Below, in pieces: positions 10,477-28,771 of a DNA stretch of 64,000 bases; position 1 is the first letter of the stretch; each line of letters opens with the position of its first letter. A model generated the notes under the pieces. It worked only from the letters and a program-made list of their open reading frames with translations. It was not told the DNA's origin and searched no databases. The stretch lies in NCBI GenBank assembly GCA_963836145.1, contig CAWIIJ010000012.1, forward strand, positions 107,142 through 171,141. The letters run 5' to 3'. Made by a program: the position numbers and the translations under genes. The stretch is from an uncultured Acidobacteriota bacterium. GTDB taxonomy: Bacteria; Acidobacteriota; Terriglobia; Acidiferrales; UBA7541.

Positions 10477-10506
10477 TTGCACGGATTGACAAGAGCTGAC
10501 TATAAT
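10477..10506 (+). promoter_or_regulatory. sigma70-type promoter TTGCAC-N18-TATAAT
   Basis: -35 at 10477-10482 and a perfect -10 at 10501-10506, about 70 nt upstream of the GGDEF gene. An 8-bp hairpin CCTTCCGT/ACGGAAGG follows in the leader. Confidence 0.55.
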
Positions 10507-10575
10507 TTCTAGTGCCTCAATACCTTCCGTGGAACGGAAGGTGACCCGCAATCGAATCTGGCACTAAGGCTTGCA

Positions 10576-11673: not shown

Positions 11674-11830
11674 ATCGGTTTTTGGACTCGATTTCCACAG
11701 CAGTATACATTCCCGCCTCCCGCATCTTCTTGATTCACTTCCTATGCCATGCTAGTCTCAGCGCTTCCGGTGACACGCCGCAGTGTGAATGGAGTGGATG
11801 TCCCGGTCGAGCATCCGAGACGAGGAGCGC

Positions 11831-12127
11831 ATGTCCAACGAAGCATTGGGGATGATTGAGACCAAGGGCCTGGTCGCTTCGATCGAAGCGGCCGACGCCA
11901 TGGTGAAGGCCGCCAACGTCATCCTCGTCGGCAAGGAATACATCGGCTCGGGATATGTCACCGTGATGGTGCGCGGAGACGTCGGCGCGGTGAAAGCCGC
12001 GACTGACGCGGGCGCGGCCGCAGCGCGCCGCGTGGGCGAGCTTGTTTCCGTGCATGTAATTCCGCGCCCGCACGAGCACGTGGAAAAGATTTTGCCCGGA
12101 GGCGGAGCGGCAGGAACGAAGAAGTAA
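11831..12127 (+). CDS. bacterial microcompartment shell protein, BMC-H (PduA/EutM/CcmK-like)
   Basis: [30 protein letters not shown]...[17 protein letters not shown] is the canonical BMC-domain sequence. Start trimmed to ATG 11831, behind GAGGAG. Confidence 0.9.
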
Positions 12128-12254
12128 ACCGCGAGGACGCGCGGTGCATCGAGCGGCCGCTAAGTTTCTGCAGCTCGCGTCAACGGTCTTCAGGCCTGCG
12201 GTTCCGGAGCCGGCGAACGAAGGCAGCGATGTTGGTAGGAGAAGGTAAAGCGTT

Positions 12255-14327
12255 TTGAGCCTGCGCGATCGCGACCTCATCTCCATTCAAGAAGCCCGCG
12301 AACTGGCGGCCCGGGCGGCTGCCGCACAGAAAAAATTCGCAGCATTTTCCCAGGAACAAGTTGACGCCGTCGTGGAGGCTTGCGCGAGAGCAGCCGCTGA
12401 AAATGCGGAGCCGCTGGCGCGCACGGCCGTGGAAGAAACCGGCTTCGGCAACGTCCCCGACAAGATCGTAAAGAACACGCTCGCCGCGGTGAACGTGCCG
12501 CGCGCGATTCGCGGCCTGTGCACCGTCGGAATTCTGCGCGAGGATCGCGACAAGGGAATCGTCGAGGTCGCCTCGCCGATCGGCGTTGTGGCGGCAGTGA
12601 TTCCTTCGACGAACCCAACCTCGACGGCCATCTACAAAACGATCATCTCCATCAAAGCGCAGAACGCGATTGTGCTGAGCCCGCATCCTTCGGCCATCAA
12701 GTGCATTTGCCAGGCGGCCACGCTGCTCGATCGCGCGGCACTTCAGGCGGGCGCGCCGGACGGCCTGATCCAGTGCATGTTGCACACCACGCTCGAAGGC
12801 ACGCGTGAGCTGATGCGCCGGCCCGAAGTCGGCGTCATCCTTGCCACCGGCGGCACGGGACTCGTGCGCGCGGCGTACGGGTCGGGCAAGCCGGCCTACG
12901 GCGTCGGTCCGGGGAACGTTCCGGCGTTCATCGAACGCACGGCCGACGTGCGCAAGGCCGTCGCGGACATCATCGCCGGGAAAACTTTCGACTATGGGAC
13001 GATCTGCTCATCCGAGCAGGCAGCGGTCGCCGAGGAATCGGTGCGCGAGCGCGCGCTCGAGGAATTCCGCCGGCAGGGCGCGTATTTTCTTTCTCCGGAT
13101 GAAATGGAAAGGGTCGCGCGCCTCGTTTTCCTGCCGGGATCGCACACGCCGAACACGAAAATTGTTGGCCGCGCGGCGACCGTGATTGCCGAGCTGGCCG
13201 GAATCAAAGTGCCGCCGGCGACGCGCGTGCTGATCGCGCGTCTCGAACCGGAACAAGTTGGCCGCGAGTTCCCGCTCTCGGCTGAAAAACTGTCACCGGT
13301 CCTGGCCTTCTATGCGGTGCCGAATCTCCCGGCGGGAATCGCTCTTTGCCGCCGGCTGCTGGAATTCGGAGGCCTGGGTCACACCTGCGCGATCCATTCG
13401 CAGAATCGCTCCGCAATTCTGCAATTCGGCGAAGCCATGCCGGCGTTTCGCGTAGTTGTGAACAGCGCGTCGGTGCACGGCTCGATCGGCTATTCGACCA
13501 ACCTCTTTCCCGCGATGACTCTCGGCTGCGGCGCACCCGGCGGCAACATCACTTCGGACAACATCGGCCCGCAACACTTGATGAACGTGAAGCGCATCGC
13601 CTGGGAATCGCGCGGCGTCGAGCACCACACCGTTCCCGCGGCGGAACGCATGGCGGGCGCGGCGATTGCGGCTGCGCCTGAAGCAGTCCAGGAAAGGGAG
13701 AGCGTGTCCCCGCCGCCGGCTGCGAAGCCCAATCCTGTTGAGAATCCGGCGGCGGCGCTGCCTGGGCCGAGGCTGGAGGAAAAGAAATCCGCCGCAAGCG
13801 CGGGGGCGCCCGCTTCCGCAGCCACCACCGGTGGAGTGGACCGCGCCGCTGTCGCGCGCGTGGTCGAGAATGTTCTCAAAGCGCAAGGGATCGTTCGTGG
13901 CAGCGGCGTTCCAAGGCCCATAAATCCGTCTCCGCCAGCACCGGAGCGCTCGACGAAAGAATTGCCCAGCCCGTCTTTGATCGCCGCTGAAGTTGCGGAC
14001 CGGCTTTTTGGTTTGGCGGCGCAATTGGGGACGAATGTTTCCATCGCTCCGCCCCAGGGCGGCGCTTCAGCATTGAGCGAGGGCCAGCCTAAAGGCTCGC
14101 GCGAAAACAACCAAGTCTCAAGCGGCGACTCCGGGAAAAAGCCCGAGGCCGCCGCAAAAATACCCGTCGAAATTCAAGGCTTTGTCAGCGAAAACGATGT
14201 GCGGCGCGCGATGACGCGCAGCGAAAAAATCTTCATCGGGCGCAAGACCATCCTCACGCCTTCCGCGCGCGATCTGGGTTTGGAGCACGAAGTGTTTGTG
14301 GAAACCGAATCCGGCTCAATCCGCTAG
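12255..14327 (+). CDS. CoA-acylating aldehyde dehydrogenase (EutE/PduP type) with ~230-aa C-terminal extension
   Basis: [26 protein letters not shown] and the catalytic [11 protein letters not shown] (Cys251). aa ~460-690 form a Pro/Ala-rich tail. TTG start behind AGGAGAAGG. Confidence 0.88.
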
Positions 14328-15976: not shown

Positions 15977-16738
15977 ATGCGAAAATTTTCGATTGGTGCG
16001 GTCGCGCTGGCGGCCGTGTTTCTGTTCTCGCAGGGAGTTGCGGCGCAAACGTCCGATGTCCGCGTGCTGGCCTCCAACGGCATCAAAGCCGTGCTTCAGG
16101 ATTTGCTTCCGCAAAGCGAGCGCACCATCGGTCACACGATCTCGGTTGAATATCGCCCCACAGCCGCTTTGAAGCAGGAAATTGAGGGTGGCGAACCCTT
16201 CGACGTGGTGATCGTGACCGTCGAAAGCATTGCCCAGCTGAGCAAGGAAGGAAAGACGATCGGCGGTGAAGGAACTCCCATCAGCCGCGCGGGCGTGGGC
16301 ATCGGCATTCGCAAGGGAGCGCCCCGTCCGGATATCAGCACGCCCGAGGCCATGAAACGCGCGCTGCTGGGAGCCAAGGCGATTGCCTACGGGCCCAGCG
16401 GCGCAAGTTTTCCCTACATCACCCGAATGTTCGAAACCCTGGGGATTGCCGACGCCATGAAGGCCAAAACTTTATTTTTCGATACGTCCGACGGCACCAA
16501 CGGCGCGGTCGCCGAGGGCAAGGCCGATTTCGGCTTCACGCTAGTCAGCGAAATCCTCCCGGTGAAAGGCATCGAATTGCTCGGTCCGTTTCCCGATGAG
16601 TTTCAAGGCTACGTGCGCTTCTCGGCCGCTGTTAGCGCCAGCGCCAAAAATCCCCAAGCGGCGAATGCGCTGATTCAATTTCTGGCGGGCCCGGACGCCC
16701 TGGCGTCGATCAAAGCCCGAGGCATGCAGCCTCACTGA
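15977..16738 (+). CDS. periplasmic substrate-binding protein (ModA/SBP_bac_11-like)
   Basis: Signal peptide MRKFSIGAVALAAVFLFSQGVAA and a PBP-type pattern including KADFGFTLVSEI. No cognate permease or ATPase is adjacent. Confidence 0.7.
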   Translation: MRKFSIGAVALAAVFLFSQGVAAQTSDVRVLASNGIKAVLQDLLPQSERTIGHTISVEYRPTAALKQEIEGGEPFDVVIVTVESIAQLSKEGKTIGGEGTPISRAGVGIGIRKGAPRPDISTPEAMKRALLGAKAIAYGPSGASFPYITRMFETLGIADAMKAKTLFFDTSDGTNGAVAEGKADFGFTLVSEILPVKGIELLGPFPDEFQGYVRFSAAVSASAKNPQAANALIQFLAGPDALASIKARGMQPH

Positions 16739-17006
16739 CGAAGGTTTCTTCGAGGAACACAGACACTTTTGCCTGCGGCTTTGGAGTTCGTCGCGGTCGT
16801 CGAAGACTTAGCGTCAGCGGCACAGGACCGCACGCCATTGCCGGCCGGGCCGGGGAAACCGTGCCGCGGTGAGTTCGACGCTCGTCATGCTAGAATCCGC
16901 GGAAACGCGGCCCGAAGAATAGGCAGACGCCCAGGTCAGAAATTTAATTCTTTCGCCGGCAAGCAGGCCTTCTGCAAAACTGCGAGGCACAGTGGGGAGG
17001 CAATTC

Positions 17007-18602
17007 ATGAATCGAATCGGCAACGTGTTAACCCTGGTCCTCTTTTGCTCTGCGTTTGCGTTCGGCGCGTCGGACGGGACGATTTCCGGCGTGATAAAGG
17101 GTCCGGCTGGAGCGGCCTTTCGCGGAGCATTCGTGCACGCCCAGAACACGCAATCCAAAATTACGGTGGAAGTTTTGTCCGACAACCAGGGACGCTACCG
17201 CATCCGGAACCTGCCTCCCGGAGAATATAACGTCGGCGTCACAGCGCCGGGCTACAAGAGCGACGCGCGTCGCGACCTGAAGCTTGCCGCCGGAGATTCC
17301 CCCGCGCTCGATTTCTCGCTGCAATACGGCACGGTGCGCTGGAGCGATCTTTCCCTCTATCAGGGCAAGGCGCTGATGCCTGCCAGCAAAGGCAAAGATA
17401 TACTGACGGGGAACTGTTTCGCGTGCCACGGATTCCAAACCCGCATGGCCGCGGTGAAACGCGATCATGACGGCTGGACGCAGGCGGTCAACTACATGCT
17501 GACCACTCGCCACGCGCGCCTCGGCAATCACATCGATGACCGGGACGCCGCGGTGCTCACGAACTACTTGGACAATGCTTTCGGAGTCGAATCGAAGTTG
17601 CCGAAATCGCCCGTCGACATGCCGGGATATAAGGCGACTCTGCGTCCCGTCAGCGACGAAGGCTTGAAAATCACCTACGTTGAATACGATATGCCCGGGC
17701 CGAATCGCATGCCCTTCAGCGCGGCACCCGACAAAGACGGCAAACTTTGGATTCCCGACATGGGTTCGGTGAACACCATCGGATGGCTTGACCCGGACAC
17801 CGGCGCGATCCAGGAATTTAAGGCTCCGAACTCGTTTCCGGCGGGCATTCACTCGGCGATTCCCGCGCCGGATGGCTCCGTCTGGCTCTCCGAGCAGGCG
17901 GCAAACAAGGTTGGCCGCTGGGATCCGAAAACGAAGCAGATTACGGAGTACCAGGATACGTACAAGCAGGGAATGGAAGGGCTCGAGGATGGCGGTTCAA
18001 AGCACACCGTGCGCGTGGATGCCAAAGGGCGTGTGTGGGGAACGGCCGTGTTCAATAATCTGACCGTATACGATCCGAAGAATAATGAATTTTCGCACTT
18101 TCCGGACACGTTTTCGCCCTACGGGCTGGAACTGGACAAGAGCGGCAATGTCTGGTTTGCCGAATTTTACCCGCAGGGAAAAATCGGCATGGTAGACGGG
18201 AACACCGGGAAGGTCACCAAATGGGATCCGCCGACCAAAGGAGGCTGGCCGCGCCGCATCGAAATTGACGACGACGGCATCGTCTGGTTCGCGGAATATC
18301 AAGGCGGCAAGATCGGGCGCTTCGATCCCAAGACGCAAACGTTTAAGGAATATGACTTGCCCGGACCGCGCGCGACGCCCTACGCGCTGGGCATCGATCG
18401 CGCGCACAACATCTGGTACTCGTCCGACGAAATGGACGTGATCGGACGCCTCAATCCAAAAACCGGCAAAGTCACCGAATATCCCTACGCGCATTCGGAA
18501 AACACGATGAAAGAATTTTTTCTCGATGCGCAGGGCCGCATGTGGTACGGCTCGGCGCCCAACAATAAGGTGGGCTACTTCGTCCCGTCCGACCTGGATT
18601 GA
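17007..18602 (+). CDS. secreted CarboxypepD_reg - cytochrome c - beta-propeller (virginiamycin-B-lyase-like repeats) protein
   Basis: Signal peptide, then GRYRIRNLPPGEYNV (Ig-like domain), a single CFACH haem-c motif, and repeated blades (GKIGRFDPKT, NKVGRWDPKT). ATG 17007 lies 7 nt after GGGGAGG. Confidence 0.8.
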   Translation: MNRIGNVLTLVLFCSAFAFGASDGTISGVIKGPAGAAFRGAFVHAQNTQSKITVEVLSDNQGRYRIRNLPPGEYNVGVTAPGYKSDARRDLKLAAGDSPALDFSLQYGTVRWSDLSLYQGKALMPASKGKDILTGNCFACHGFQTRMAAVKRDHDGWTQAVNYMLTTRHARLGNHIDDRDAAVLTNYLDNAFGVESKLPKSPVDMPGYKATLRPVSDEGLKITYVEYDMPGPNRMPFSAAPDKDGKLWIPDMGSVNTIGWLDPDTGAIQEFKAPNSFPAGIHSAIPAPDGSVWLSEQAANKVGRWDPKTKQITEYQDTYKQGMEGLEDGGSKHTVRVDAKGRVWGTAVFNNLTVYDPKNNEFSHFPDTFSPYGLELDKSGNVWFAEFYPQGKIGMVDGNTGKVTKWDPPTKGGWPRRIEIDDDGIVWFAEYQGGKIGRFDPKTQTFKEYDLPGPRATPYALGIDRAHNIWYSSDEMDVIGRLNPKTGKVTEYPYAHSENTMKEFFLDAQGRMWYGSAPNNKVGYFVPSDLD

Positions 18603-18607
18603 ATTCA

Positions 18608-18631
18608 GTAGCACAGGCTTTCAGCCTGTGC
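18608..18631. repeat. REP-like palindrome R1 (GTAGCACAGGCTTTCAGCCTGTGC)
   Basis: Sits immediately after the stop at 18602 and may act as a terminator. Confidence 0.85.
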
Positions 18632-18823: not shown

Positions 18824-19615
18824 ATGCGAAGTAGCGCATTGGGTGTCGTGCTGGCGCTGCCGATTGTTTTCATTTGCGCTCCGGCGGTTTCCGCGCAAAC
18901 CAAGCCGGCGGCTCAAACGCCCGCCTCTTCGGCGCCCTTCGATCCCCATGACTTGTCCGGAGTTTGGAGCCAAGAGCACCCCCGAACGGCTCCGGTCGTG
19001 GAGCGCTATTGGAATTATGAGTTCAGCAAGGAACCGCCTCCCATGACGGCCTGGGGAAAGGCGCAGTTCGACGCGGCGAAATCCTCGTTCGGGCTTCACA
19101 CGTATCCCCTTGCGGAAACGAACGATCCTCTTTATCACAGCTGCACTCCGCCCGGACTGCCGCGCGTCTATCTGCATCCTTTCCCAATGGAAATTGTGCA
19201 GATGCCCGGAGAAATATTGATCCTGTTTGAGTACGACTCTCTCCGCCACCCGATTTACACGGACGGTCGAAAACATGACGAAACTCTGGGTCCGTTGTGG
19301 ATGGGTGACGCCATCGGCCACTGGGAGGGAGACACGCTGGTTGTGGACACCGTGAACTTCAATGACAAGACCTGGATCGACCGCGTCGGGCATCCGCACA
19401 GCGCCGAACTGCACCTCGTCGAGCATATCCGGCGGACTGACCGCGGGCACTTGACGGACGACATCACCATCGAGGACCCCAAGGCCTACACGCGGCCCTG
19501 GACGGCTCACCTGGATTTCATACTCCGGCCGACCTGGACTCTGGGCGAACAGTTCTGCGAGGACGAGCACAGTTTTGAAAACTTCGATAAGGGCGCGGCA
19601 ACGCCGCCGAAATAG
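18824..19615 (+). CDS. secreted protein, unassigned family A, paralog A1 (263 aa)
   Basis: Signal peptide MRSSALGVVLALPIVFICAPAVSA/Q. Family blocks DLSGVW, PPMTAWG, NDPLY..C.PPG.PR, TDGR, GHWEGDTLVV, GHPHS and DPKAYT. ATG behind GGGGAGGAG. Confidence 0.85.
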   Translation: MRSSALGVVLALPIVFICAPAVSAQTKPAAQTPASSAPFDPHDLSGVWSQEHPRTAPVVERYWNYEFSKEPPPMTAWGKAQFDAAKSSFGLHTYPLAETNDPLYHSCTPPGLPRVYLHPFPMEIVQMPGEILILFEYDSLRHPIYTDGRKHDETLGPLWMGDAIGHWEGDTLVVDTVNFNDKTWIDRVGHPHSAELHLVEHIRRTDRGHLTDDITIEDPKAYTRPWTAHLDFILRPTWTLGEQFCEDEHSFENFDKGAATPPK

Positions 19616-19806
19616 ACCTGCACCCTCCATGTGATGGCCGAATCGCGGCGACTGGGTTTTTGTGGTTACAGGGGATCCGCGCGCGACTACGGAGTTGACA
19701 CCACGCAACTTGGATGGGATATTTTGATCAGTTCACTCTTTTGTTGCTGAGTTTCCTCGGCAACCGTAACGTTAATTTGATTCGCTCCTTTTCCGGAGGC
19801 ACGGAA

Positions 19807-20184
19807 ATGAAAAAAATCGCGTTCTTTGTGGCCGTGGCCTTTGCGCCGCTTCTGGTATCGACCCCTGTTCTGGCGCATCACGGGGAAGCGAATTACGATA
19901 CGGACAAAGTCGTGTCCGTAAAGGGCACCGTGTCGGACTTTCAATTCATCAATCCGCACACGCTGATCACCCTGGACGTCAAAAACGACAAGGGCGAGAT
20001 TGAGAAGTGGAACTGCGAAATGAGAAGTCCCACCATGCTGGTCCGCGCGGGCGGTTGGGACAAGAACACGCTCAAGATCGGCGACGTCATCACGGTTTAT
20101 GGTTACCGGGCGAAGAATGGCACGACGGTTATGCGGCTGCAAAAGCTCACGCTCCCGGACGGCACGTTGAAAGACAATCTGTAA
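19807..20184 (+). CDS. secreted small protein, DUF6152-like, paralog B1 (125 aa)
   Basis: MKKIAFFVAVAFAPLLVSTPVLA/HHGEANYD..FINPH..W.CE..SP..L.R.GW..GD. The family name is recalled from memory. Confidence 0.8.
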   Translation: MKKIAFFVAVAFAPLLVSTPVLAHHGEANYDTDKVVSVKGTVSDFQFINPHTLITLDVKNDKGEIEKWNCEMRSPTMLVRAGGWDKNTLKIGDVITVYGYRAKNGTTVMRLQKLTLPDGTLKDNL

Positions 20185-20372
20185 GAGCGGGAAGCTTCGC
20201 CGAGCGGCAGGGCGCTCCGGGGGCGCCCCTGGTTACGGTTGACGAAATTACGTTTGGCGAAACACGCTGCCCGATCCGCGGCCTGATTTTTCCTCAGTGG
20301 TTTCTGTGCTCAATTTGCGCCTCTGATTCTCGTACGCCCTCAGGATTAGTCTTGACCTAGTCGAACCGCTGC

Positions 20373-20382
20373 GGTGTATCAT
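20373..20382 (+). promoter_or_regulatory. conserved GGTGTATCAT box (-10-like TATCAT) upstream of A2
   Basis: Same geometry as the box at 18763 (CTTGAC ... GCGGTGTAT(G/C)AT). It ends 56 nt before ATG 20438. Confidence 0.35.
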
Positions 20383-20437
20383 CGCCTGAAATCTGAATCC
20401 CAATAGACAGTTTTAAGTTTCGGGAGGCGTTCACGAG

Positions 20438-21220
20438 ATGCGAAATCCAATACCCGGCATGGCGTTCGCGTTCGCGATGGTCGTCACCGTCTCGTCGTTG
20501 GCGTCCGCTCAGAGCAAACCGGAATCGGATGCGGCCCCGGCTGTGAGCGTGGACCCATCGCACGATTTGTCAGGTGTCTGGATGAGAAACGCCCCGCCCG
20601 CGACCGGTCTGGAATACTGGGTCTACGAGTTCAGCAAAGAAGATCCTCCCATGACGCCGTGGGGCGAAGCGCAATTCAAAGCGGCCAAGTCCTCGTTCGG
20701 GGATCACCCGTATCCCCTCAACGAAGTGAATGACCCGCTCTACCACAACTGCGCCCCTCCGGGTGTGCCGCGCATTTATCTTCATCCGACGCCCGTGCAG
20801 ATCGTTCCGGCGCCTGGCGAACTGATCATGCTCTTTGAATATGACTTCATCCGGCGCCAGATTTTCATAGATGGCCGCCCGCACGACAAAACTTTCGGGC
20901 CCATGTGGATGGGAGATTCGATCGGACACTGGGAGGGCGACACGCTGGTCGTGGACACCGTGAATTTCAATACCAAGACCTGGCTGGACCGAATGGGCCA
21001 TCCGCACAGCGACGCCCTGCACGTGATCGAACGTTTCCGCCGGCCCGACCACGGGCACTTGTCGCTGGACATCACCATTGACGATCCCAAGGCTTATTCC
21101 AAACCCTGGACGACGCACCTGGATTTCCTGCTCAAGCCGTGGACTCTCGAGGAGCATCTCTGCGTGGACTACGACACCTTCCAGAATGTTGAGAACGGAG
21201 AGACGATGCCAGCGAAATAG
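20438..21220 (+). CDS. secreted protein, family A, paralog A2 (260 aa)
   Basis: Signal peptide ...VSSLASA/QSKP and all family blocks. RBS GGGAGG. Confidence 0.85.
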   Translation: MRNPIPGMAFAFAMVVTVSSLASAQSKPESDAAPAVSVDPSHDLSGVWMRNAPPATGLEYWVYEFSKEDPPMTPWGEAQFKAAKSSFGDHPYPLNEVNDPLYHNCAPPGVPRIYLHPTPVQIVPAPGELIMLFEYDFIRRQIFIDGRPHDKTFGPMWMGDSIGHWEGDTLVVDTVNFNTKTWLDRMGHPHSDALHVIERFRRPDHGHLSLDITIDDPKAYSKPWTTHLDFLLKPWTLEEHLCVDYDTFQNVENGETMPAK

Positions 21221-21267
21221 CCGCGATTCACGCGTTTGATAGATCGGCTGCTGGCTCGATGCGCCGT

Positions 21268-21277
21268 GGTGTATGAT
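21268..21277 (+). promoter_or_regulatory. conserved GGTGTATGAT box upstream of A3
   Basis: Ends 56 nt before GTG 21333. Confidence 0.3.
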
Positions 21278-21332
21278 TTCTCCAAAGCGAGAATTCAAAA
21301 AACGGAATTGGGACTTGCGGAGGTGTTTCGCA

Positions 21333-22124
21333 GTGCGAATTCATAACCTCGCCATTGCTCTCGCGCTCTCGATGCTCGGCAATTGTTCGGTTGTGCTCTT
21401 GGCTCAAACGCAACCGCCATCGAAACCGGCGCAGTCCGCTGCTTCCGGTCAGGTGCCTGACTTGTCAGGAGTTTGGTTCAACGATCATCCCCGGCCGATG
21501 ACCTCCAACGAGCGCTACTGGATCTACAAGTTCACGATAGAAGAGCCTCCCATGACCGCATGGGGCCTGGCGCAATACAACGCCACCAAATCTTCCTTTG
21601 GAACCCGATCGTATCCCCTGGCCGAGACCAACGACCCGCTGTACCACACCTGCGCTCCCCCGGGATTCCCGCGTATTTATCTCCATCCGTTTCCAATGCA
21701 GATCGTTCAAACGCCCAGCGAAGTCATCTTCCTGTTTGAGTACGACTCGATCCGCCACCAGATTTTCACGGACGGGCGCGCGCATGACACGACGCTCGGT
21801 CCACTGTGGATGGGCGACTCGATCGGGCATTGGGAAGGCGACACGCTGGTCGCCGATACGGTGAATTTCAATGACAAGACCTGGCTCGATCGTATCGGTC
21901 ACCCGCACAGCGCGGATCTCCACGTCGTGGAGCGCATCCGGCGAGTGGACCATGACCATTTAGTGGACGACATCACGATCGAAGATCCCAAGGCGTATAC
22001 CCGGCCGTGGACCACTCAGATCGAATTTCTGCTGAAGCCCAAGTGGACTCTCGAAGAACAGTTCTGCGAGGATGAAGAAAGCTTCCAATCGATGGACAAG
22101 GACGCCGCCGCACCAAAAAAGTAG
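21333..22124 (+). CDS. secreted protein, family A, paralog A3 (263 aa)
   Basis: Track ORF trimmed to GTG 21333, 9 nt after GGAGG. Signal peptide VRIHNLAIALALSMLGNCSVVLLA/QTQP. Confidence 0.82.
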   Translation: MRIHNLAIALALSMLGNCSVVLLAQTQPPSKPAQSAASGQVPDLSGVWFNDHPRPMTSNERYWIYKFTIEEPPMTAWGLAQYNATKSSFGTRSYPLAETNDPLYHTCAPPGFPRIYLHPFPMQIVQTPSEVIFLFEYDSIRHQIFTDGRAHDTTLGPLWMGDSIGHWEGDTLVADTVNFNDKTWLDRIGHPHSADLHVVERIRRVDHDHLVDDITIEDPKAYTRPWTTQIEFLLKPKWTLEEQFCEDEESFQSMDKDAAAPKK

Positions 22125-22156
22125 CCATCATGGCGGATCGAGCTAGGAGTTTTGGA

Positions 22157-22948
22157 ATGCGAAAGTATCCACTGGCCATTCTCGTGGCGCTGACGATCGG
22201 CCTGGGTTTCTTGGCCATGGCATCGGCTCAAAACAAACAACCCTCCGCGACGCCAAGCGCCGCCAGTTCGAATCCGGCGCACGATTTGTCGGGCGTATGG
22301 TTTGACGACCATCCGCGGCTCATTCGGGTCATGGATCGATACTGGGCTTACGAATTCACCAAGGAAGAGCCCCCCATGACGGCCTGGGGCGAAGAGCAGT
22401 TCAAGGCGGCCAAACCGTCCTTCGGAACTCGCTCCTATCCTCTCGCGGAATCCAACGATCCCATTTATCACACCTGCGATCCGATCGGATTCCCGCGGAT
22501 TTATCTTTATCCGTTGCCGATGCAGATCGTTCAAAGGCCCGGCGAGGTTATCCTGCTTTTCGAATATGATTCGCTGCGCCATCAGATTTACACGGACGGC
22601 CGCCCGCATGACACAAGTCTCGGCCCTCTTTGGATGGGCGATTCGATCGGCCATTGGGAAGGCGACACGCTGGTCGCCGACACCGTGAATTTGAACAACA
22701 AGACTTGGATCGATCGCATGGGGCACCCGCATAGCGATGCCCTGCACGTGATCGAACGATTTCAGCGCGTGGATCACGATCATCTCGTGGACGACATTAC
22801 CATCGACGACCCCAAGGCCTACACCAGACCATGGACCGCGCATCTCCCGTACGTGCTGAAACCGAAGTGGACTTTGGCCGAAGAGTTTTGTGAGGACGAG
22901 GGCTCCTTCCAGAACATTGAAAACGACGAAACCCAGCCGGCCAAGTAA
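22157..22948 (+). CDS. secreted protein, family A, paralog A4 (263 aa)
   Basis: ATG 22157 behind AGGAG. Signal peptide MRKYPLAILVALTIGLGFLAMASA/QNKQP. Confidence 0.85.
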   Translation: MRKYPLAILVALTIGLGFLAMASAQNKQPSATPSAASSNPAHDLSGVWFDDHPRLIRVMDRYWAYEFTKEEPPMTAWGEEQFKAAKPSFGTRSYPLAESNDPIYHTCDPIGFPRIYLYPLPMQIVQRPGEVILLFEYDSLRHQIYTDGRPHDTSLGPLWMGDSIGHWEGDTLVADTVNLNNKTWIDRMGHPHSDALHVIERFQRVDHDHLVDDITIDDPKAYTRPWTAHLPYVLKPKWTLAEEFCEDEGSFQNIENDETQPAK

Positions 22949-22970
22949 TTAACCGAGAGGTCCCCCCGCA

Positions 22971-23762
22971 ATGCGAAAGCATCTACCCGGAATTGCGTTG
23001 GCATTCGTAACCGCGCTGATTTATTCACCGGGCCCGCGCGCTCAGACCAAACAGCCACCGGACACCCAGAAGGCTCCCGCTTCATTCGATCCGCATGACT
23101 TGACGGGCGTGTGGATGCAGGACCGCCCTCGGTTGCAGACGGTCGTGGCGCGATATTGGATTTATGAGCTGACCCAGGAAGAGCCCCCCATGACCGCGTG
23201 GGGACTGGCGCAGTACAAAGCTGCCAAGTCTTCCTTTGGAACTCATTCATACCCGCTCGCGGAAACGAACGATCCGATCTACCGCAACTGCTATCCCACC
23301 GGCTTCCCGCGCGCTTTTTTTCATGCCTTTCCGCTGCAAATTGTCCAGACACCCGGCGAGGTCATCATGCTTTTCGAGTGGGACTCCCTGCGGCACCAGA
23401 TTTTTACCGATGGGCGCAAGCATGACAGCAGCCTCGGCCCGCTGTGGATGGGCGATTCGATTGGACATTGGGAGGGCGACACGATGGTTGCGGACACCGT
23501 GAATTTCAACGACAAGACCTGGCTGGACCGTATTGGCCACCCCCACAGCGAGGCTTTGCACGTGATCGAACGTATCCGGCGCCCGGATCACGGCCACCTG
23601 GAGGATGAAATCACCATCGACGATCCCAAGGCCTACACTAAGCCGTGGACCGGACGCATCGTTTTTGCGCTGAAGCCCACCTGGACTCTTTCCGAGGAAT
23701 TCTGCGAAGACATCAGCAGCTTTGAAAACATCGAAAAGCAGGAGGTTGCTCCCGCGAAGTAG
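22971..23762 (+). CDS. secreted protein, family A, paralog A5 (263 aa)
   Basis: Signal peptide MRKHLPGIALAFVTALIYSPGPRA/QTKQP. Starts 22 nt after the A4 stop. Confidence 0.85.
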   Translation: MRKHLPGIALAFVTALIYSPGPRAQTKQPPDTQKAPASFDPHDLTGVWMQDRPRLQTVVARYWIYELTQEEPPMTAWGLAQYKAAKSSFGTHSYPLAETNDPIYRNCYPTGFPRAFFHAFPLQIVQTPGEVIMLFEWDSLRHQIFTDGRKHDSSLGPLWMGDSIGHWEGDTMVADTVNFNDKTWLDRIGHPHSEALHVIERIRRPDHGHLEDEITIDDPKAYTKPWTGRIVFALKPTWTLSEEFCEDISSFENIEKQEVAPAK

Positions 23763-23773
23763 CGACTTTGGGA

Positions 23774-23803
23774 TTGACAGATCTCTAATTGAGGTGGGAT
23801 ATT
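23774..23803 (+). promoter_or_regulatory. possible sigma70 promoter TTGACA-N18-GATATT upstream of B2
   Basis: Perfect -35 at 23774-23779 and a weak -10 at 23798-23803. Confidence 0.35.
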
Positions 23804-23882
23804 TCCCTCAGATACTTTCCAAAGTCGCAACTTCAGCGCAATGGTGTGTCGATCTTGGTTGCTGCCTGCAGGAGGCTGGGAA

Positions 23883-24260
23883 ATGAAAACCTGGGTGCTG
23901 GGCCTGGCGATTATGCTTGCGGCTCTTTTTCTGTCGGCGCCGGTCATGGCGCATCATGGCGAAACGAATTATGATACTGACAAACTCGTGAGCGTGAAGG
24001 CCACCGTGACGAGCTTCGAATTCATCAATCCCCACGTGCAGATCACGTTGGAAGCCAAGAATGACAAGGGCGAAACCGAAAAATGGATCTGCGAAGCCCG
24101 CAGCCCGGCGATGCTGGTCCGCAACGGCGGCTGGGATAAAAATACGCTCAAGCCCGGTGACGTGATCACCGCCACCGGTTTTCGCGCCAAAAACGGAACG
24201 AATATCCTGCGCCTGAAAAAAATTGTGCTCTCCAACGGCACGGAGCTGCCCGACCTATAG
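23883..24260 (+). CDS. secreted small protein, DUF6152-like, paralog B2 (125 aa)
   Basis: MKTWVLGLAIMLAALFLSAPVMA/HHGETNYD..FINPH. Very similar to B1 by eye. Confidence 0.8.
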   Translation: MKTWVLGLAIMLAALFLSAPVMAHHGETNYDTDKLVSVKATVTSFEFINPHVQITLEAKNDKGETEKWICEARSPAMLVRNGGWDKNTLKPGDVITATGFRAKNGTNILRLKKIVLSNGTELPDL

Positions 24261-24342
24261 AACGGTCACTGCAGAACGGCCGCGCGGTTCGGAGCCGGCA
24301 ATCACAGCGTAAACGCGTAGATTCAAACTGCGAGGGTGTGGC

Positions 24343-24738
24343 ATGAACTTGAAGACGAAAGCCTCCATTTTCCTGATCGCAAGTTTTCTTCTGGCGAGTG
24401 TCCCGGCGCGGGCGCACCACGGAAATTCGGCTTACGACGAGAGTCATTGGATCACGCTCTCCGGCACGGTCACGGAGTTCGTGTGGTCCAATCCTCATTG
24501 CCAGATTTTTTTGGACGTGAAGGATGACAAGGGTGCCGTCGTAAACTGGGCCATCGAAAGCCAGAGCCCCGGCATTTTGCGGCGGAACAATTGGACCCGC
24601 AATTCCGTCAGGGCCGGCGACCAGATTACCATCACGCTGGCCCCCGCGAAAAACGGAGCGCCCGTCGGCTTTTCCGGAAATCAACTGGGAAAAGTCGTGT
24701 TCGCCGATGGCCACATATTAAAGATGGACATTCGCTAA
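24343..24738 (+). CDS. secreted small protein, DUF6152-like, paralog B3 (131 aa)
   Basis: MNLKTKASIFLIASFLLASVPARA/HHGNSAYD..WSNPH. More divergent than B1 and B2. Confidence 0.8.
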   Translation: MNLKTKASIFLIASFLLASVPARAHHGNSAYDESHWITLSGTVTEFVWSNPHCQIFLDVKDDKGAVVNWAIESQSPGILRRNNWTRNSVRAGDQITITLAPAKNGAPVGFSGNQLGKVVFADGHILKMDIR

Positions 24739-24843
24739 CAGCAGTAGCGCCGGGGTCCCGTCCTGTGCGCTTTTGGCGGCCAAACGTTTGTGCAGCGCCC
24801 GCTGTTCGATTTATCTTTTTCCGCAGCCGGAAAGAGGTCCGAA

Positions 24844-25641
24844 GTGCGAACAAGCCTAAAATCTTCTCTCCCGGCTTTTGCGGCGCTTTTGGCGGCGCTG
24901 ACGCTATTGACCGCCGCCCGCATGTATGCCGCCCCGCGACGAGCCGCCCAGAAATCCCCGGCCATGCCAGCTCCCAAGCGCGACCTGACCGGAGTTTGGC
25001 AACTCCAGAGCAAAGACGGCGGCGCGCAGCCTATCGCGCCAGACGACGACATGCCGCCGATGACGCCCTGGGCGAAGGCCAGATTCGTTGCAGAGAAGCC
25101 TGGATACGGCGCTCGCGGCGCCGCGGGCGGCAATGACCCCATCCTGCAGTGCGATCCGATTGGCTTCCCGCGAATCATGTTGATGCCCACGCCAAATGAA
25201 CTTGTTCAGCTTCCTGATCGAGTCCTCCAGTTCTGGGAGCGCGAACACGAATGGCGTCCCATTTGGACCGACGGCCGCTCGCTGCCCAGCGATCCCGACC
25301 CCACCTGGTACGGTTACGCTATTGGCCACTGGGAAGGTGACGACACTTTCGTCGTGCAATCGGCCGGCTTCAACGACAAAACGTGGCTCGGTCCCACAGG
25401 TTATCCGCACTCCGACGAGATGCAAGTCACGGAACGCTATCATCGCGTGGACCATGACACCATTGTCTACGACATGACCATCACGGATCCAAAGGCCTAC
25501 ACCAAGCCGGTCATGGCGCCTCAGCGAATCATGAAACTAAAGCCCCATGAAGAGATCGAAGAGCAGCCATGTGTCTGGTCGCAAGAAAATGAATTCACCC
25601 AAAGAATCCGGGAGCCCGCAACCCCCAAGCGCCGGCAGTAG
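24844..25641 (+). CDS. secreted protein, family A (divergent subfamily), paralog A6 (265 aa)
   Basis: GTG 24844 behind GGAAAGAGG. Blocks DLTGVW, PPMTPWA, GNDPILQCDPIGFPR, GHWEGDDTFVV, GYPHSDE and DPKAYT. Confidence 0.8.
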   Translation: MRTSLKSSLPAFAALLAALTLLTAARMYAAPRRAAQKSPAMPAPKRDLTGVWQLQSKDGGAQPIAPDDDMPPMTPWAKARFVAEKPGYGARGAAGGNDPILQCDPIGFPRIMLMPTPNELVQLPDRVLQFWEREHEWRPIWTDGRSLPSDPDPTWYGYAIGHWEGDDTFVVQSAGFNDKTWLGPTGYPHSDEMQVTERYHRVDHDTIVYDMTITDPKAYTKPVMAPQRIMKLKPHEEIEEQPCVWSQENEFTQRIREPATPKRRQ

Positions 25642-25682
25642 GACAGGCTACACAGGCTGAGGAGAAAGTACCCAGCCCTGTT

Positions 25683-25765
25683 GTCATTCCAAGAGGAGCG
25701 AGGAATTTCTCTTTCTTTTCTAATAGTCAGGCCCAGGAGAGATTCGTCGCTCCGCTCGGGATGAC
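25683..25765. repeat. R2 inverted-repeat element
   Basis: GTCATTCCAAGAGGAGCGAGGAAT...GATTCGTCGCTCCGCTCGGGATGAC. Same orientation as the 57224 copy and opposite to the 14428 copy. Confidence 0.85.
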
Positions 25766-25827
25766 AAATCGAGTGCTTTCTCCACAGCCTACGGAGCCTG
25801 GCAGCTTTAAATGCACGAACATGCAAA

Positions 25828-26688
25828 GTGCCCGGTGGAAAGAACTCTGTCGGTCAAGCACCCCGGCCAGCCGCCGCGGAAAGGAAAAGTAACATTCTCC
25901 CCAGCGCAAAATACGCCGCAGCAACGCTCCTGCCCTTGCTGCTCTCCTGCGCCGTATCGCCGGCAGCGGCTCAGCAGCCGCCCGCCGCAAAATCGACGGC
26001 GGCCCACGCCGCGGCTCCCGTTCCGAAGCGAGACCTTTCCGGCCTATGGCACTACCAAAGCACCGGCGCCTCCGAACCCATCGCCCCCGATAACATGATT
26101 CCGCCAATGACTCAGTGGGCCAAGGCAAGGTTCGACCTGGAAAAGCCAGGATACGGCCCCAGGCGCGCGCCGGGCGGCAATGACCCGATTTTGCGATGCG
26201 ATCCGATGGGTTTCCCGCGGGTGATGTTTTTAAATACGCCCTTCGAGTTCGTTCAGGCACCTGGCCGGGTGATTCAGTTTTTCGAACACGAACACGAGTA
26301 CCGCACCATATGGACGGACGGCAGGCCTCTGCCCACCGACGTCGATCCAACGTGGTATGGATACGCCATCGGCCATTGGGAGGGAGACGACACGCTCGTG
26401 GTTGAATCCTCAGGCTTCCGCGACAGTACCTGGCTAGGTTCCACCGGCTACCCCCACAGCGAAGACATGCGCGTTACCGAACGCTACCGTCGCGTGGATC
26501 AGGACACCATCCTCTACGACATCACCGTAACCGACCCCAAGGCCTACACCGAGCCCATCGTCGGCCCGCACCGAACCATGAAGCAGCGCCCGCACGACGA
26601 AATGGTGGAGGAGATTTGCGTCCCATCGGAAGAACAATCCTTTGCCGACCGGATCGCCGAGCCGGCCACGCCGAAATCCTCGAAGTAG
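25828..26688 (+). CDS. secreted protein, family A (divergent subfamily), paralog A7 (286 aa)
   Basis: The only canonical start upstream of the hydrophobic segment LLPLLLSCAVSPAAA/QQ is GTG 25828, giving a long n-region, so the start is uncertain. Blocks match A6. Confidence 0.75.
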   Translation: MPGGKNSVGQAPRPAAAERKSNILPSAKYAAATLLPLLLSCAVSPAAAQQPPAAKSTAAHAAAPVPKRDLSGLWHYQSTGASEPIAPDNMIPPMTQWAKARFDLEKPGYGPRRAPGGNDPILRCDPMGFPRVMFLNTPFEFVQAPGRVIQFFEHEHEYRTIWTDGRPLPTDVDPTWYGYAIGHWEGDDTLVVESSGFRDSTWLGSTGYPHSEDMRVTERYRRVDQDTILYDITVTDPKAYTEPIVGPHRTMKQRPHDEMVEEICVPSEEQSFADRIAEPATPKSSK

Positions 26689-26705: not shown

Positions 26706-26740
26706 GGCGGCACAGATTTCCGCCTGTGTGTTTTTTTTTG
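26706..26740 (+). terminator. possible intrinsic terminator after the array
   Basis: Short stem (GGCGG/CCGCC or CACAG/CTGTG) followed by T9 at 26731-26739. The stem is weak. Confidence 0.4.
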
Positions 26741-26756
26741 CGTGATCATTCCGAAT

Positions 26757-26787
26757 CAAAAAGCCACAGGCTGAACGCCTGTGCTAC
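26757..26787. repeat. REP-like palindrome R1 (CCACAGGCTGAACGCCTGTGCTAC)
   Basis: Lies between the convergent A7 and amidohydrolase genes. Confidence 0.85.
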
Positions 26788-26796
26788 TTACGGCAA

Positions 26797-27759
26797 TCAG
26801 AAACCGTATAGGCGGGCAGGATTGTCGACCAGGATCTTTTTGCGGATCGCCGGGTCCGGCGCCCACGTTGGAAGCAGATTGAGCAGGTGGCCGTCGTCGA
26901 CGGCGAACATGGGCATGGGGTCGGTAGGTTTTCCGCGATCGACCGGGGCCATCGGATGCGGCCAGTCGGTGCCCCACAGGATGCGATCCGGATTCGTCTC
27001 GATCAGGGCTTTGGCGAATGGCGCCATGTCCGGATAATCAGGGGCCTGTTTCGAGGAGCGGTAGGGCGCCGAAATTTTGACGTAGGCGCTGCCGGAACGG
27101 ACCAGTTCGAGCAGATCGGCGAAGCCCGGCTGCTGCAGGCCGCGCGCGGCTTGCGCTCCGGCGAAGTGGTCGAACACGGTGGGCACGGGCGAAGTGCGCA
27201 CCAGATCCTTCAGCGCGGAGACCACGGCCAGATCGGCGTAGATCTGAATGTTCCAGTTGTGCTTTTTGAATTGCGCGGCGGCCGCCTGATAAATCGGGCG
27301 CGCGAAAGTTGGATCGGGCAAGCCCGTGGCCGTGGCAATAACTCGCGCGCCGCGGACGCCCGCCTTGTACAGCGCTTCATAATCGTTATCGGTCATCTTG
27401 TCGTTGATCACCACGATGCCGCGCGCGTTCGCCCCGCGGGCCTTCATGGCGTAGAGCGTCGCGGAATTATCCGACCCGTAGGGGCTGGGGGTGACGATCA
27501 CCACCCGCTCCATGTGCAGCGCATTATGCAGCGCCGACATGTCTTCGGGGGTCATGGCCTCCGGCGTGTACACGTGCTGAGGGACGAGCGGAAACTGCCT
27601 GGTGTCCCCATAAAAATGGATATGGCAGTCGCAGGCGTGCGGTGGAACGGCAAAATTGACCGGCGTGGCCGGTTGCGGCGCCTTGGCAAGGCTTGGTAAG
27701 CCGCGCATCAACACACCCACGGCAATTGCTCCCGATACGAAGTTTCGTCGCGTCAGCAT
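26797..27759 (-). CDS. amidohydrolase family protein with Tat signal (LigI / 2-pyrone-4,6-dicarboxylate hydrolase-like)
   Basis: Track ORF 26797..28326 trimmed to ATG 27759, behind GGAGG. MLTRRNFVSGAIAVG, CDCHIHFYG and WGTDWPHP motifs. Confidence 0.85.
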   Translation of the reverse strand: MLTRRNFVSGAIAVGVLMRGLPSLAKAPQPATPVNFAVPPHACDCHIHFYGDTRQFPLVPQHVYTPEAMTPEDMSALHNALHMERVVIVTPSPYGSDNSATLYAMKARGANARGIVVINDKMTDNDYEALYKAGVRGARVIATATGLPDPTFARPIYQAAAAQFKKHNWNIQIYADLAVVSALKDLVRTSPVPTVFDHFAGAQAARGLQQPGFADLLELVRSGSAYVKISAPYRSSKQAPDYPDMAPFAKALIETNPDRILWGTDWPHPMAPVDRGKPTDPMPMFAVDDGHLLNLLPTWAPDPAIRKKILVDNPARLYGF

Positions 27760-27955
27760 CGCTGCCTCCGATCTGCTAATGGGATTTCCGGATTGGCTTT
27801 CTGGCTCGGAGCAGTATACGGTAACTTGCCTCAGGTTGGCGGGTGGAACTGGACTTTGAAGATGCGCCGGATCGATTGACTTGGAGACGTCTTTCGACCC
27901 CTGCCTTGCGAAACGAATTATAGAAGGGATGACGTACTCTCCGGTCGGAGGAACG

Positions 27956-28771
27956 ATGCTCGAGCCCGCCATCGTAGCGGAAGGATTGTCGCGCAGTTTC
28001 GGTAACCTCATTGCGGTGGACCATGTGGACTTGCGCGTGGATGCCGGACAATTCTTCGGTTTTCTTGGACCCAACGGAGCCGGGAAATCCACCACCATCC
28101 GCATGATGACCGGGCTGCTCGCGCCGACCGCCGGAAGCATCCGCCTGCTGGGGCTCAATCTGGAAACCAACTCGACCGAAGTAAAGCGCCAGATTGGTGT
28201 AGTCCCGGAAGGCCTGGCGCTGTTTGACCGCCTCACGGGAAGCGAATATTTGAATTTCGTGGGGCGAATGTACGGCCTGGACCGCGCCACAGCCGCGCAG
28301 CGCACGCGCGAATTGCTGGACTTCATGGACCTGGCCGACCGGCCGAAAACGCTGGTGGTGGACTACTCCCACGGAATGAAGAAAAAACTTGCTCTGGCCG
28401 CAGCCGTGATCCACGGGCCCAAGATTCTGTTTTTGGACGAGCCCTTCGAAGGAGTGGACGCGATCGCCGCCGGGACACTGAAGAGGATGTTAAACAACAT
28501 GACCGCGCGCGGGGCGACGATTTTTCTCACCTCTCACGTGCTTGAGATTGTGGAGCGCTTGTGCAGCCACGTGGCCATCATCAATAAGGGACGCATTATC
28601 GCGCAGGGTTCTCTGGACGAGCTTCGAGCGGGTGTGGCCGCCGCGTCGCACATGGATGGCGCCTCCGCGGCCCCGGCGCAGAAACTTACGCTGGAAGAAA
28701 TTTTTCTGGCCGTGGTGGGCAACGAAGCCGCGGCGCGGAAATCCGAGGAAGAGCTTTCATGGCTGAAGTAG
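27956..28771 (+). CDS. ABC transporter ATP-binding protein
   Basis: Walker A GPNGAGKST and an ABC signature region. ATG 27956 lies 5 nt after GGAGGA. Confidence 0.9.
   Translation: MLEPAIVAEGLSRSFGNLIAVDHVDLRVDAGQFFGFLGPNGAGKSTTIRMMTGLLAPTAGSIRLLGLNLETNSTEVKRQIGVVPEGLALFDRLTGSEYLNFVGRMYGLDRATAAQRTRELLDFMDLADRPKTLVVDYSHGMKKKLALAAAVIHGPKILFLDEPFEGVDAIAAGTLKRMLNNMTARGATIFLTSHVLEIVERLCSHVAIINKGRIIAQGSLDELRAGVAAASHMDGASAAPAQKLTLEEIFLAVVGNEAAARKSEEELSWLK

Follow-up and report, generated by a model that had tools for sequence, protein, structure and literature searches.

What might a run of ten neighbouring genes do when it encodes only two families of secreted proteins? This question is raised by a 64-kb stretch of DNA (the window) from an uncultured Acidobacteriota bacterium, contig CAWIIJ010000012.1. 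As the preliminary description of this stretch had it, and as the listing of open reading frames (ORFs) bears out, ten + strand genes, A1-B1-A2-A3-A4-A5-B2-B3-A6-A7, follow one another between positions 18824 and 26688, and nothing lies between them. The remaining ORFs of this interval are antisense or overlapping, as is typical of high-GC DNA. Seven of the genes code for members of a family that we call A and three for members of family B, which is DUF6152. Our preferred reading, held tentatively and well short of even confidence, is that A and B form a periplasmic hand-off module in which the amino terminus of B would bind a metal, probably Cu(II), while A would be its ligand-binding partner. 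The genes of the array are as follows (aa, amino acids).

18824-19615, + strand: A1, family A, 263 aa; Sec signal ...AVSA/QTKP; profile score 399 bits
19807-20184, + strand: B1, DUF6152, 125 aa; predicted cleavage VLA/HHGE; PF19649 E = 1.3e-28
20438-21220, + strand: A2, family A, 260 aa; the sole array copy without a positional ortholog in relatives
21333-22124, + strand: A3, family A, 263 aa
22157-22948, + strand: A4, family A, 263 aa
22971-23762, + strand: A5, family A, 263 aa
23883-24260, + strand: B2, DUF6152, 125 aa; predicted cleavage VMA/HHGE; Pfam E = 1.8e-24
24343-24738, + strand: B3, DUF6152, divergent subtype preceding A6 and A7, 131 aa; predicted cleavage ARA/HHGN; Pfam E = 1.8e-28
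24790-25641, + strand: A6, family A, divergent subtype, 283 aa as an ORF; start codon uncertain
25828-26688, + strand: A7, family A, divergent subtype, 286 aa as an ORF

Some of these boundaries differ from the first reading. The start of B1 was corrected to 19807. The length of 263 codons given earlier for A3 and A4, together with the gaps of 32 and 22 nt, holds only when internal ATG codons are taken as starts; the ORFs themselves open at 21273 and 22130. These starts are a sensible choice, 263 aa being the commonest length among the homologs.

The association of A with B was followed across genomes. A scan using one genome per species returned at least 595 family-A loci, mostly from Acidobacteriota (Terriglobia, Bryobacterales, Acidoferrales, group 2 and Vicinamibacterales) and a few from metagenome-assembled genomes labelled Proteobacteria or Verrucomicrobia. 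Gene neighbourhoods were studied in a sample of 80 family-A loci fetched from other genomes, where local hidden Markov model (HMM) searches detected 155 A and 90 B genes; on several megaplasmids, ORFs were called locally. Eighty of the 90 B genes directly adjoin an A gene on the same strand, B preceding A in 62 cases and following it in 18, and 58 of the 80 loci hold such a pair. The module also occurs in cultured Alphaproteobacteria, among them Novosphingobium and Sinorhizobium. In Croceibacterium atlanticum the order DUF6152-DUF6152-A-TonB receptor is found on one strand, and Sphingobium sp. TomTYG65 carries A-B-A-B with overlapping reading frames. Overall its distribution is patchy, often in accessory loci or on plasmids. 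Two natural B-A fusions (P0394 and P0444) consist of a signal peptide, the HHG motif, the DUF6152 domain, a linker and the A domain; the B domain is N-terminal in both and no residual internal signal peptide is left. Adjacency of A and B, first seen in this one genome, thus holds across acidobacterial orders and in Alphaproteobacteria.

The two families also diverge together. Among 76 unique adjacent B-then-A pairs, A-A and B-B distances correlate with r = 0.81. When B proteins were shuffled within loci, r fell to 0.43 ± 0.06, and none of 2000 shuffles reached 0.81. Therefore, A/B pairs are inherited, or co-evolve, as units. Overall, A/B is a widespread gene pair, and coincidence can practically be discarded as the cause of the association. 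That two unrelated secreted genes merely happened to be neighbours and were amplified in one lineage, with no functional link between them, is accordingly so improbable as to be nearly negligible: 22 of the 80 loci do have an A gene with no B within 10 kb, and B occurs without A in several Proteobacteria, but such a reading is contradicted by the adjacency in 58 loci spread over several orders and two phyla, with the fusions and the overlapping frames of sphingomonads, with the pair-specific co-divergence and with the positional orthology of the array genes.

This orthology was observed in related genomes (78-83% identity), which carry A-B-A-A-B-B-A(-A) arrays at the same place. In neighbour-joining trees, A1, A3 to A7, B1, B2 and B3 each fall in a clade of their own with their positional orthologs, whereas A2 has none; orthologs of A1 occupy the first array position in four related genomes. 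B3, in its own orthologous clade, forms with A6 and A7 a deeply separate subtype. Because each paralog except A2 has positional orthologs in five related genomes, the array is, as judged from these trees, ancient and not the product of a recent burst. Of the dense amplification proposed at the outset, the multi-copy character stands; a recent lineage-specific expansion does not, nine of the ten genes having positional orthologs in relatives.

Family B carries the most specific indication of function. The earlier assignment to a DUF6152-like family proved right: B1, B2 and B3, which are mutually 42-64% identical, match PF19649 with 86-99 bits against a cut-off of 27 (E = 1e-24 to 1e-28). No mention of DUF6152, PF19649 or DUF6644, a family considered below, was found in the literature searched. 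Every one of the 114 unique B precursors, which come from Acidobacteriota and Proteobacteria, has a His-His pair right after the hydrophobic signal segment, and in 108 of them Ala stands at -1, so that the cleavage site predicted from the sequence would leave His-His as the mature start. All of 110 unique mature sequences have His1, His2, Pro27 and His28. Conservation is almost complete at Gly68-Asp69 and extends to 103-107 sequences for Asn26, Trp45 and Glu48; position 7 is Tyr or Phe in 107, and no Met is conserved. The AlphaFold2 model of B3 (predicted local distance difference test, pLDDT, of 86) shows an oligonucleotide/oligosaccharide-binding (OB) fold. Its best Foldseek matches are PriB, single-stranded-DNA-binding protein and the anticodon-binding domains of lysyl-tRNA synthetase (E ~2e-3).

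A mature protein starting with His recalls the histidine brace, in which a first-residue His binds Cu(II) through its amino group and side chain and a second His completes the site (PMC10952591). Such a brace is present in the periplasmic copper carriers CopC and YcnI (PMC8424229, PMC12362106). From its sequence, B would have the first feature of a brace, and it has a candidate for the second in the His of the Asn-Pro-His motif, present in 110 of 110 sequences; confidence in the model is low (pLDDT < 50) at residues 22-26. Profile scans of B gave no match to CopC, YcnI or lytic polysaccharide monooxygenases (LPMOs), and the predicted OB fold is unlike that of known histidine-brace families.

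The fold brings another copper protein to mind. Like CusF, B would be a small periplasmic OB-type barrel, OB being the fold class of this Cu/Ag chaperone, whose N-terminal segment is His-rich. Unlike CusF, B has no His/Met/Met/Trp Cu(I) site, and its His1, His2, Asn-Pro-His, Trp45 and Glu48 point to a different, harder-ligand site. The same likeness applies to the NOV5WD8W family, proposed as a CusF-like copper chaperone next to NosZ (PMC10849945), with which B1 has a weak profile similarity (E = 0.054).

In several Proteobacteria, B has another partner. In Paracoccus, Cupriavidus and Azospirillum, B is directly followed by a gene of the DUF6644 family, with no A gene; such pairs were seen in Paracoccus versutus, Cupriavidus campinensis and Azospirillum brasilense. 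The order in Sinorhizobium mexicanum is B-A-D-D, where D stands for DUF6644, and of six sphingomonad loci examined, four contain a pair with DUF6644. The positions of the DUF6152-DUF6644 pairs and of the B-A-D-D set are as follows.

L092, 6986-7849: DUF6152-DUF6644 pair
L094, 5974-6858: DUF6152-DUF6644 pair
L095, 5944-6841: DUF6152-DUF6644 pair
L093, 7007-9483: B-A-D-D

DUF6644 proteins show weak, sub-threshold similarity to the copper-uptake membrane protein CopD (E = 4.7e-4) and to DUF2214 (E ~3e-3). The DUF6152-DUF6644 pair thus has the appearance of another uncharacterised two-gene module, with B as the shared member. As a separate observation, membrane proteins of about 325 aa combine an N-terminal DUF2231-like domain (HLLLNHFPI motif) with a C-terminal DUF6644 domain; these fusions, at L025 18879-19862, L040 7682-8653 and L046 6641-7744, adjoin stand-alone DUF6644 genes and B/A pairs.

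These arrangements can be compared with the CopC-CopD, YobA-YebZ-YebY and YcnI-YcnJ systems, which, like B, feature a small exported protein whose first mature residue is His, Cu(II)-binding in those systems. There the gene of the His protein has as its neighbour one for a multi-pass membrane protein of the CopD type, and in some cases a further small periplasmic protein, YebY (DUF2511), is encoded as well (PMC8689200, PMC8424229, PMC12362106). The adjacency of B to DUF6644 in four proteobacterial genera parallels CopC-CopD and the E. coli YobA-YebZ-YebY set (PMC8689200), as well as YcnI-YcnJ. The differences are equally clear. B has a predicted OB fold and not a cupredoxin-like or Ig-like one, and matches neither the CopC nor the YcnI profile. 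The window and most acidobacterial A/B loci are devoid of DUF6644. Moreover, the copper systems have no counterpart of A, and A/B is often linked to TonB receptors and propeller enzymes. By analogy, the logic of the system resembles that of periplasmic copper-uptake sets, with folds new to this role and a large extra partner family.

This partner, family A, is well delimited. The seven A proteins align end to end with 62 invariant columns, identities being 59-66% within A1-A5 and 38-40% between A1 and A6 or A7. All the sequence blocks listed in the preliminary description are among these columns, which include DL.G.W, PPMT.W, NDP, C.P.G.PR, DGR, IGHWEGD, G.PHS and DPKAY. Its mention of one Cys near each end was mistaken: the conserved Cys are at positions 107 and 245 of the A1 precursor. 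A family profile recovers the seven copies at 364-427 bits and no eighth copy in the window. The family is also large. A word-indexed search gave 7,649 clusters at 90% identity, all unnamed or called 'hypothetical protein', as are the sphingomonad homologs in the Prokaryotic Genome Annotation Pipeline (PGAP). An exhaustive HMM search gave 17,117 representatives at 50% identity (E <= 1e-3), 9,910 of them at E <= 1e-10. Pfam and NCBIfam scans of the seven window copies returned no match. Nor, with the limit relaxed to E <= 1, did Pfam place any of 91 diverse members, no lipocalin, fatty-acid-binding protein (FABP) or related family appearing. A PDB sequence search with three family-A profiles, including those built from 7 and 91 sequences, found nothing significant. 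The view that A lies outside characterised families is borne out by these searches; A-B adjacency being conserved outside this genome as well, the interpretation of the array as a dedicated two-component secreted system is supported.

The structure of A was predicted with AlphaFold2 (overall pLDDT 74, predicted template modelling score 0.72; pLDDT mostly 76-96 over residues 121-240, lowest in blocks 131-140 and 181-190). The model starts with the DLSGVW strand (46-50), followed by a partly helical insert of about 60 residues, ten antiparallel strands (114-234) and a C-terminal helix. Against the PDB, Foldseek returned weak matches only (E ~2e-3), all of them calycins of the cellular retinoic-acid-binding protein (CRABP), FABP and secretory abundant heat soluble (SAHS) kinds. 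The TM-score with CRABP/FABP structures was 0.33 when normalised by the query and 0.57-0.61 when normalised by the target. A is thus predicted to be a calycin/FABP-like beta-barrel. In 91 diverse members, the positions kept throughout the family are D43, G46 and W48, the last two forming the G-x-W of the first strand (D43 in 84, G46 in 91 and W48 in 89 members), and C107 and C245. These two Cys probably form a disulfide because A is exported. The core of the same 91 members reads G161..G165-x-W167-E-G-D-T-L-V-V ... T-W184-x-D186 ... G189-x-P-H192-S ... E200-R201 ... R204 ... D218-P219.

The comparison with calycins (lipocalins, FABP/CRABP, ZinT, siderocalin-type proteins) rests on a predicted antiparallel barrel with an N-terminal G-x-W strand, and on A being secreted and having many diversified paralogs. 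Features that set A apart are the helical insert that follows its first strand, two conserved Cys and an extended core of invariant residues (G.S.G.WEGDTLVV.T ... TW.D..G.PHS ... ER.RR ... DDP.AY); the Foldseek matches are weak and no Pfam calycin family is matched. To our knowledge, this core is not that of any described family. A genes also fuse with one another: 12 of the 150 best representatives are A-A tandem fusions of 454-531 aa (P0361, P0365, P0367, P0370, P0377, P0419, P0425, P0430, P0433, P0440, P0460 and P0489).

Barrel and OB folds would also suit an envelope carrier or chaperone, with A a LolA-like or lipocalin-like carrier of lipids, lipoproteins or outer-membrane components and B an OB stress protein of the BOF/YgiW type, abundance and strong promoters then reflecting a structural or housekeeping role. 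One family-A member has a weak match to DUF2092, which is LolA-like (E = 0.11), the copy number is high, and conserved, strong sigma-70-like promoters of the pattern TTGACA-N17/18-TGGGATATT were found 5' of B1 and B2.

19695-19723, + strand: promoter-like site 5' of B1, TTGACA-N17-(TG)GATATT, 10 of 12 consensus positions
23774-23803, + strand: promoter-like site 5' of B2, TTGACA-N18-(TG)GGATATT, 10 of 12 consensus positions

The B1 site is full in three genomes and partial in two more: L006 and L007 retain both hexamers, L001 and L005 part of them. At the B2 site, GGATTGACA ... TGGGATATTT is invariant in six genomes. Because these strong matches lie 5' of B1 and B2, we infer that transcription units start at B genes, one comprising B1 and A2 to A5 and the other B2, B3, A6 and A7. 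Footprinting of the regions 5' of B1 and B2 revealed no operator-like palindrome. A role as envelope carrier nevertheless has only a small likelihood in our view: its scattered occurrence, often in accessory loci or on plasmids, is not that of a universal envelope component, and neither the specific A-B co-divergence nor the invariant His-His would be expected of a generic carrier.

Which other functions are found near A and B? Genes at most two positions from A/B (near) were compared with genes at least five positions away (far) in 77 loci; as the gene clusters were defined from near genes, the p-values are somewhat optimistic.

NHL six-bladed propellers: near 29 vs far 2, odds ratio 16.6, p = 8e-8
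Metallo-beta-lactamases: near 11 vs far 0
TonB-dependent receptors: near 24 vs far 10, odds ratio 2.7, p = 0.009
DUF6644-like membrane proteins: near 9 vs far 0
Sulfite-oxidase-like molybdenum enzymes: near 6 vs far 0
SGL propellers: near 5 vs far 0
Cytochromes c: near 5 vs far 0

One of the 150 best family-A representatives, P0413, is a metallo-beta-lactamase-A fusion whose first domain is homologous to the metallo-beta-lactamase genes adjoining A/B. An identity of the NHL neighbour as peptidyl-hydroxyglycine lyase (PAL) is not supported, the PDB giving only generic NHL repeats of the TRIM71/Thin kind. A multicopper oxidase gene adjoins the A/B module in two lineages (L002 14379-15848; L080 7802-9295).

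In the window itself, the array is flanked by the following genes.

15977-16738, + strand: ModA-like solute-binding protein (SBP_bac_11), PF13531 E = 1e-34
16992-18602, + strand: V, secreted protein with CarboxypepD_reg, CxxCH cytochrome c and Vgb-lyase-like six-bladed propeller domains, immediately 5' of the array
26797-27741, - strand: Tat-signal Amidohydro_2 protein, convergent neighbour, NCBIfam NF042924 E = 1.6e-55, below the family cut-off

V matches Vgb_lyase (E = 1.5e-36, 126 bits against a cut-off of 50) and CarboxypepD_reg (E = 3e-20), the cytochrome c match being weak, and aligns with the PDB Vgb structures 2qc5/2z2p (E = 4e-32). Its score with the Vgb(A)/Vgb(B) models of NCBIfam is 85 bits, where 600 would be required, and the CarboxypepD_reg and cytochrome c domains are extra. 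By these matches V is a relative of Vgb, not a Vgb. The architecture is unusual, and a propeller of the lyase or lactonase type fused to cytochrome c suggests a redox-coupled periplasmic enzyme. V lies directly 5' of the array in L001, L002, L004, L005, L006 and L007, L003 being cut after the second A gene, and V-like genes adjoin A/B in L061 and L063; V-type partners are confined to a sub-clade. The preliminary description had passed over this conserved upstream partner, as well as the His-His start of B and the apparent opening of transcription units at B genes. The amidohydrolase encoded on the other side is related to 4-sulfomuconolactone hydrolase and to LigI-type lactonases. Amidohydro_2 genes lie near A/B in 7-9 other loci, an enrichment that is not significant; this enzyme is a possible functional neighbour.

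These neighbours are also those expected if the module handled organic substrates and trafficked no metal. Hydrophobic compounds of the lactone or ester type, for example natural products, antibiotics or lactones derived from lignin or humic matter, would then enter through TonB-dependent receptors. A would be their binding protein in the periplasm, or an enzyme acting on them, and neighbouring lactonase-type enzymes would convert them. B would be an accessory subunit whose His-His end binds ligand or serves catalysis. The strongest enrichments are indeed of hydrolase or lyase folds with lactonase members (NHL, metallo-beta-lactamase and SGL), one of which is found fused to A; V is a Vgb homolog and the downstream gene codes for a lactonase-family amidohydrolase. 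The calycin/FABP-like barrel, the seven diverged A paralogs kept over evolution and the many A-A tandem fusions argue in the same direction, and bacterial lipocalins can capture antibiotics. We regard this explanation, the main rival of the hand-off module, as possible, if rather doubtful. It leaves unexplained the invariant free His-His of B and the pairing of B with a CopD-like protein in genomes that have no A. Conservation in A falls mainly on Gly, Trp, Pro and Cys and on Asp, Glu and Arg of the salt-bridge type, with no recognisable catalytic motif, and the wider contexts are mixed (sulfonate genes in Sphingobium, paa in Paracoccus, beta-oxidation in N. humi).

The sulfonate context was seen at L088, on a plasmid of Sphingobium sp. 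TomTYG65 (AP027331.1 293183-309689), where A-B-A-B lies within a sulfur-scavenging island together with two luciferase-like monooxygenases (LLM), a flavin (FAD) oxidoreductase, AhpC, a TonB receptor, TauD, sulfonate-binding proteins and SsuD. Sulfur scavenging was rejected as a general role, its families being absent among the 25 most frequent of 116 Pfam families in 140 acidobacterial neighbours.

Redox partners raise yet another explanation, that of an extracytoplasmic copper redox enzyme. B would be a catalytic histidine-brace centre on an OB scaffold, with LPMO-like oxidase or peroxygenase chemistry; A would hold a substrate or redox cofactor, and electrons would come from the cytochrome c domain of V and from neighbouring cytochromes. 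The N-terminal His of B, its second invariant His and its Tyr/Phe form the ligand set typical of histidine-brace enzymes (PMC10952591). The cytochrome c-propeller fusion stands directly 5' of the array in this lineage, and genes for cytochromes c and molybdenum oxidoreductases are enriched nearby. Still, B has no sequence or fold relation to LPMO, CopC, PmoB or YcnI, histidine-brace proteins of its size are mostly chaperones, V-type partners are limited to a sub-clade, and no candidate substrate is at hand; we give this enzyme a slim chance. Similarly, we consider it improbable that B founds a new class of histidine-brace copper proteins with an OB fold and makes up, with the A barrel as holder of a substrate or cofactor and the cytochrome c-linked propellers, a new extracytoplasmic copper oxidative or metal-extraction system; such a system would be abundant in soil Acidobacteria and would make family A a new superfamily of enzymes or binding proteins.

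TonB-linked processing of imported chelates is known from the enterobactin esterases PfeE, IroE and Cee, and from MbnT with MbnP/MbnH. The neighbourhoods of A/B are alike in comprising a receptor, periplasmic hydrolases, small binding proteins and sometimes a c-type cytochrome. They differ in that no component is homologous, and the TonB link is moderate (odds ratio above) and absent from the window.

Returning to the hand-off module that we tentatively prefer, its steps would be as follows. B would be exported by Sec, and cleavage would leave His-His as its mature start. The amino-terminal His and the Asn-Pro-His of the first OB-fold loop would form a divalent-metal site, most likely occupied by Cu(II) in the fashion of a histidine brace, and B would serve as a small periplasmic shuttle. 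A would be a disulfide-braced calycin-type barrel and the specific partner of B. Its cargo could be the metal or, more probably, a metal-chelate or other small ligand entering through a TonB-dependent receptor, and A and B would exchange this cargo. The seven maintained A paralogs may differ in ligand specificity, and the propellers (NHL, SGL, Vgb-like), metallo-beta-lactamases and amidohydrolases might degrade or reduce the carrier molecule. In Proteobacteria, B would hand the metal to the CopD-like membrane protein DUF6644. This reading draws on the constrained N-terminus of B and its predicted OB fold, on the pairing of B with DUF6644, on the genetic coupling of A and B, on the predicted barrel of A, and on the neighbouring TonB receptors, NHL propellers, metallo-beta-lactamases and multicopper oxidases.

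Several observations weigh against this hand-off. On the side of B, the model has low confidence at its N-terminal end. B1 matches NOV5WD8W with E = 0.054, below threshold, and homology with CusF was rejected, hhalign giving a probability of 6.6% against the E. coli CusF sequence. The similarity of DUF6644 to CopD is sub-threshold (E = 4.7e-4, 21 bits against a cut-off of 32). In A, no His/Met/Cys cluster is conserved across the 91 members: position 166 varies between R, K and H, only 84% of sequences have H192 and 49% have M74, and the His residues invariant in the window copies are not universal in the family. The co-divergence of A and B could also come simply from adjacent genes duplicating as a unit. 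None of the genes for TonB receptors, DUF6644, NHL propellers or metallo-beta-lactamases occurs in the window. Finally, the B1 and B2 promoters look like strong plain sigma-70 sites, and no classical metal-homeostasis regulator or operator was seen; scans with Fur, Zur and CueR consensus sequences, which are proteobacterial and uninformative for this phylum, found nothing near the array.

Whatever its exact role, neither A nor B belongs to a characterised family, and A is absent from both Pfam and NCBIfam. Family A stands among the larger secreted families of soil Acidobacteria, a phylum among the most abundant in soil, and has no assigned function. Being tied to a definite partner, it becomes accessible to a testable hypothesis through the His-His signature of B and the CopD-like link. 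Should B prove to be a metal shuttle, the copper-binding proteins with an amino-terminal His would gain a new fold, and the module would represent a route, linked to TonB receptors, by which metals or chelates are handed on in the periplasm. If B is catalytic, or A a new class of enzyme, the system would be categorically new. The cultured carriers Croceibacterium atlanticum, Novosphingobium, Sphingobium and Sinorhizobium are suited to genetics and biochemistry.

Some minor features of the surroundings complete the picture. The SBP_bac_11 gene occupies the same position in L001 and L007, and an S-B-B-A order is found in the distant L018; its product is a possible accessory of the array. Further upstream, the region 9448-14327, also 5' of the array in L001 and L002 with synteny kept, codes for an HTH/RodZ_C (helix-turn-helix) protein, a GAF-GGDEF protein, a lone bacterial microcompartment (BMC) shell protein and an aldehyde dehydrogenase of about 690 aa. 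Downstream, the 509 aa ORF at 26797-28326 (- strand) is probably over-extended. What looks like the real gene is confined to 26797-27741 and codes for the last 314 aa or so, whereas the 5' portion of the ORF overlaps an opposite-strand ABC-transporter ATPase gene at 27881-28771. Hairpins, some of the repetitive extragenic palindromic (REP) type, lie at both ends of the array.

18611-18631, + strand: REP-like, terminator-like hairpin between V and A1, from the terminator scan
26710-26783, no strand: hairpins 3' of A7, terminator-like at 26710-26729 (+ strand) and REP-like at 26765-26783

The REP-like palindrome ACAGGC-N5/6-GCCTGT occurs seven times in the window, at positions 343, 15607, 15931, 18613, 26766, 49541 and 61376, whereas chance alone would give 0.02 copies. 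The palindrome could serve as a terminator or belong to an intergenic repeat element, and the copies right after V and A7 bracket the array.

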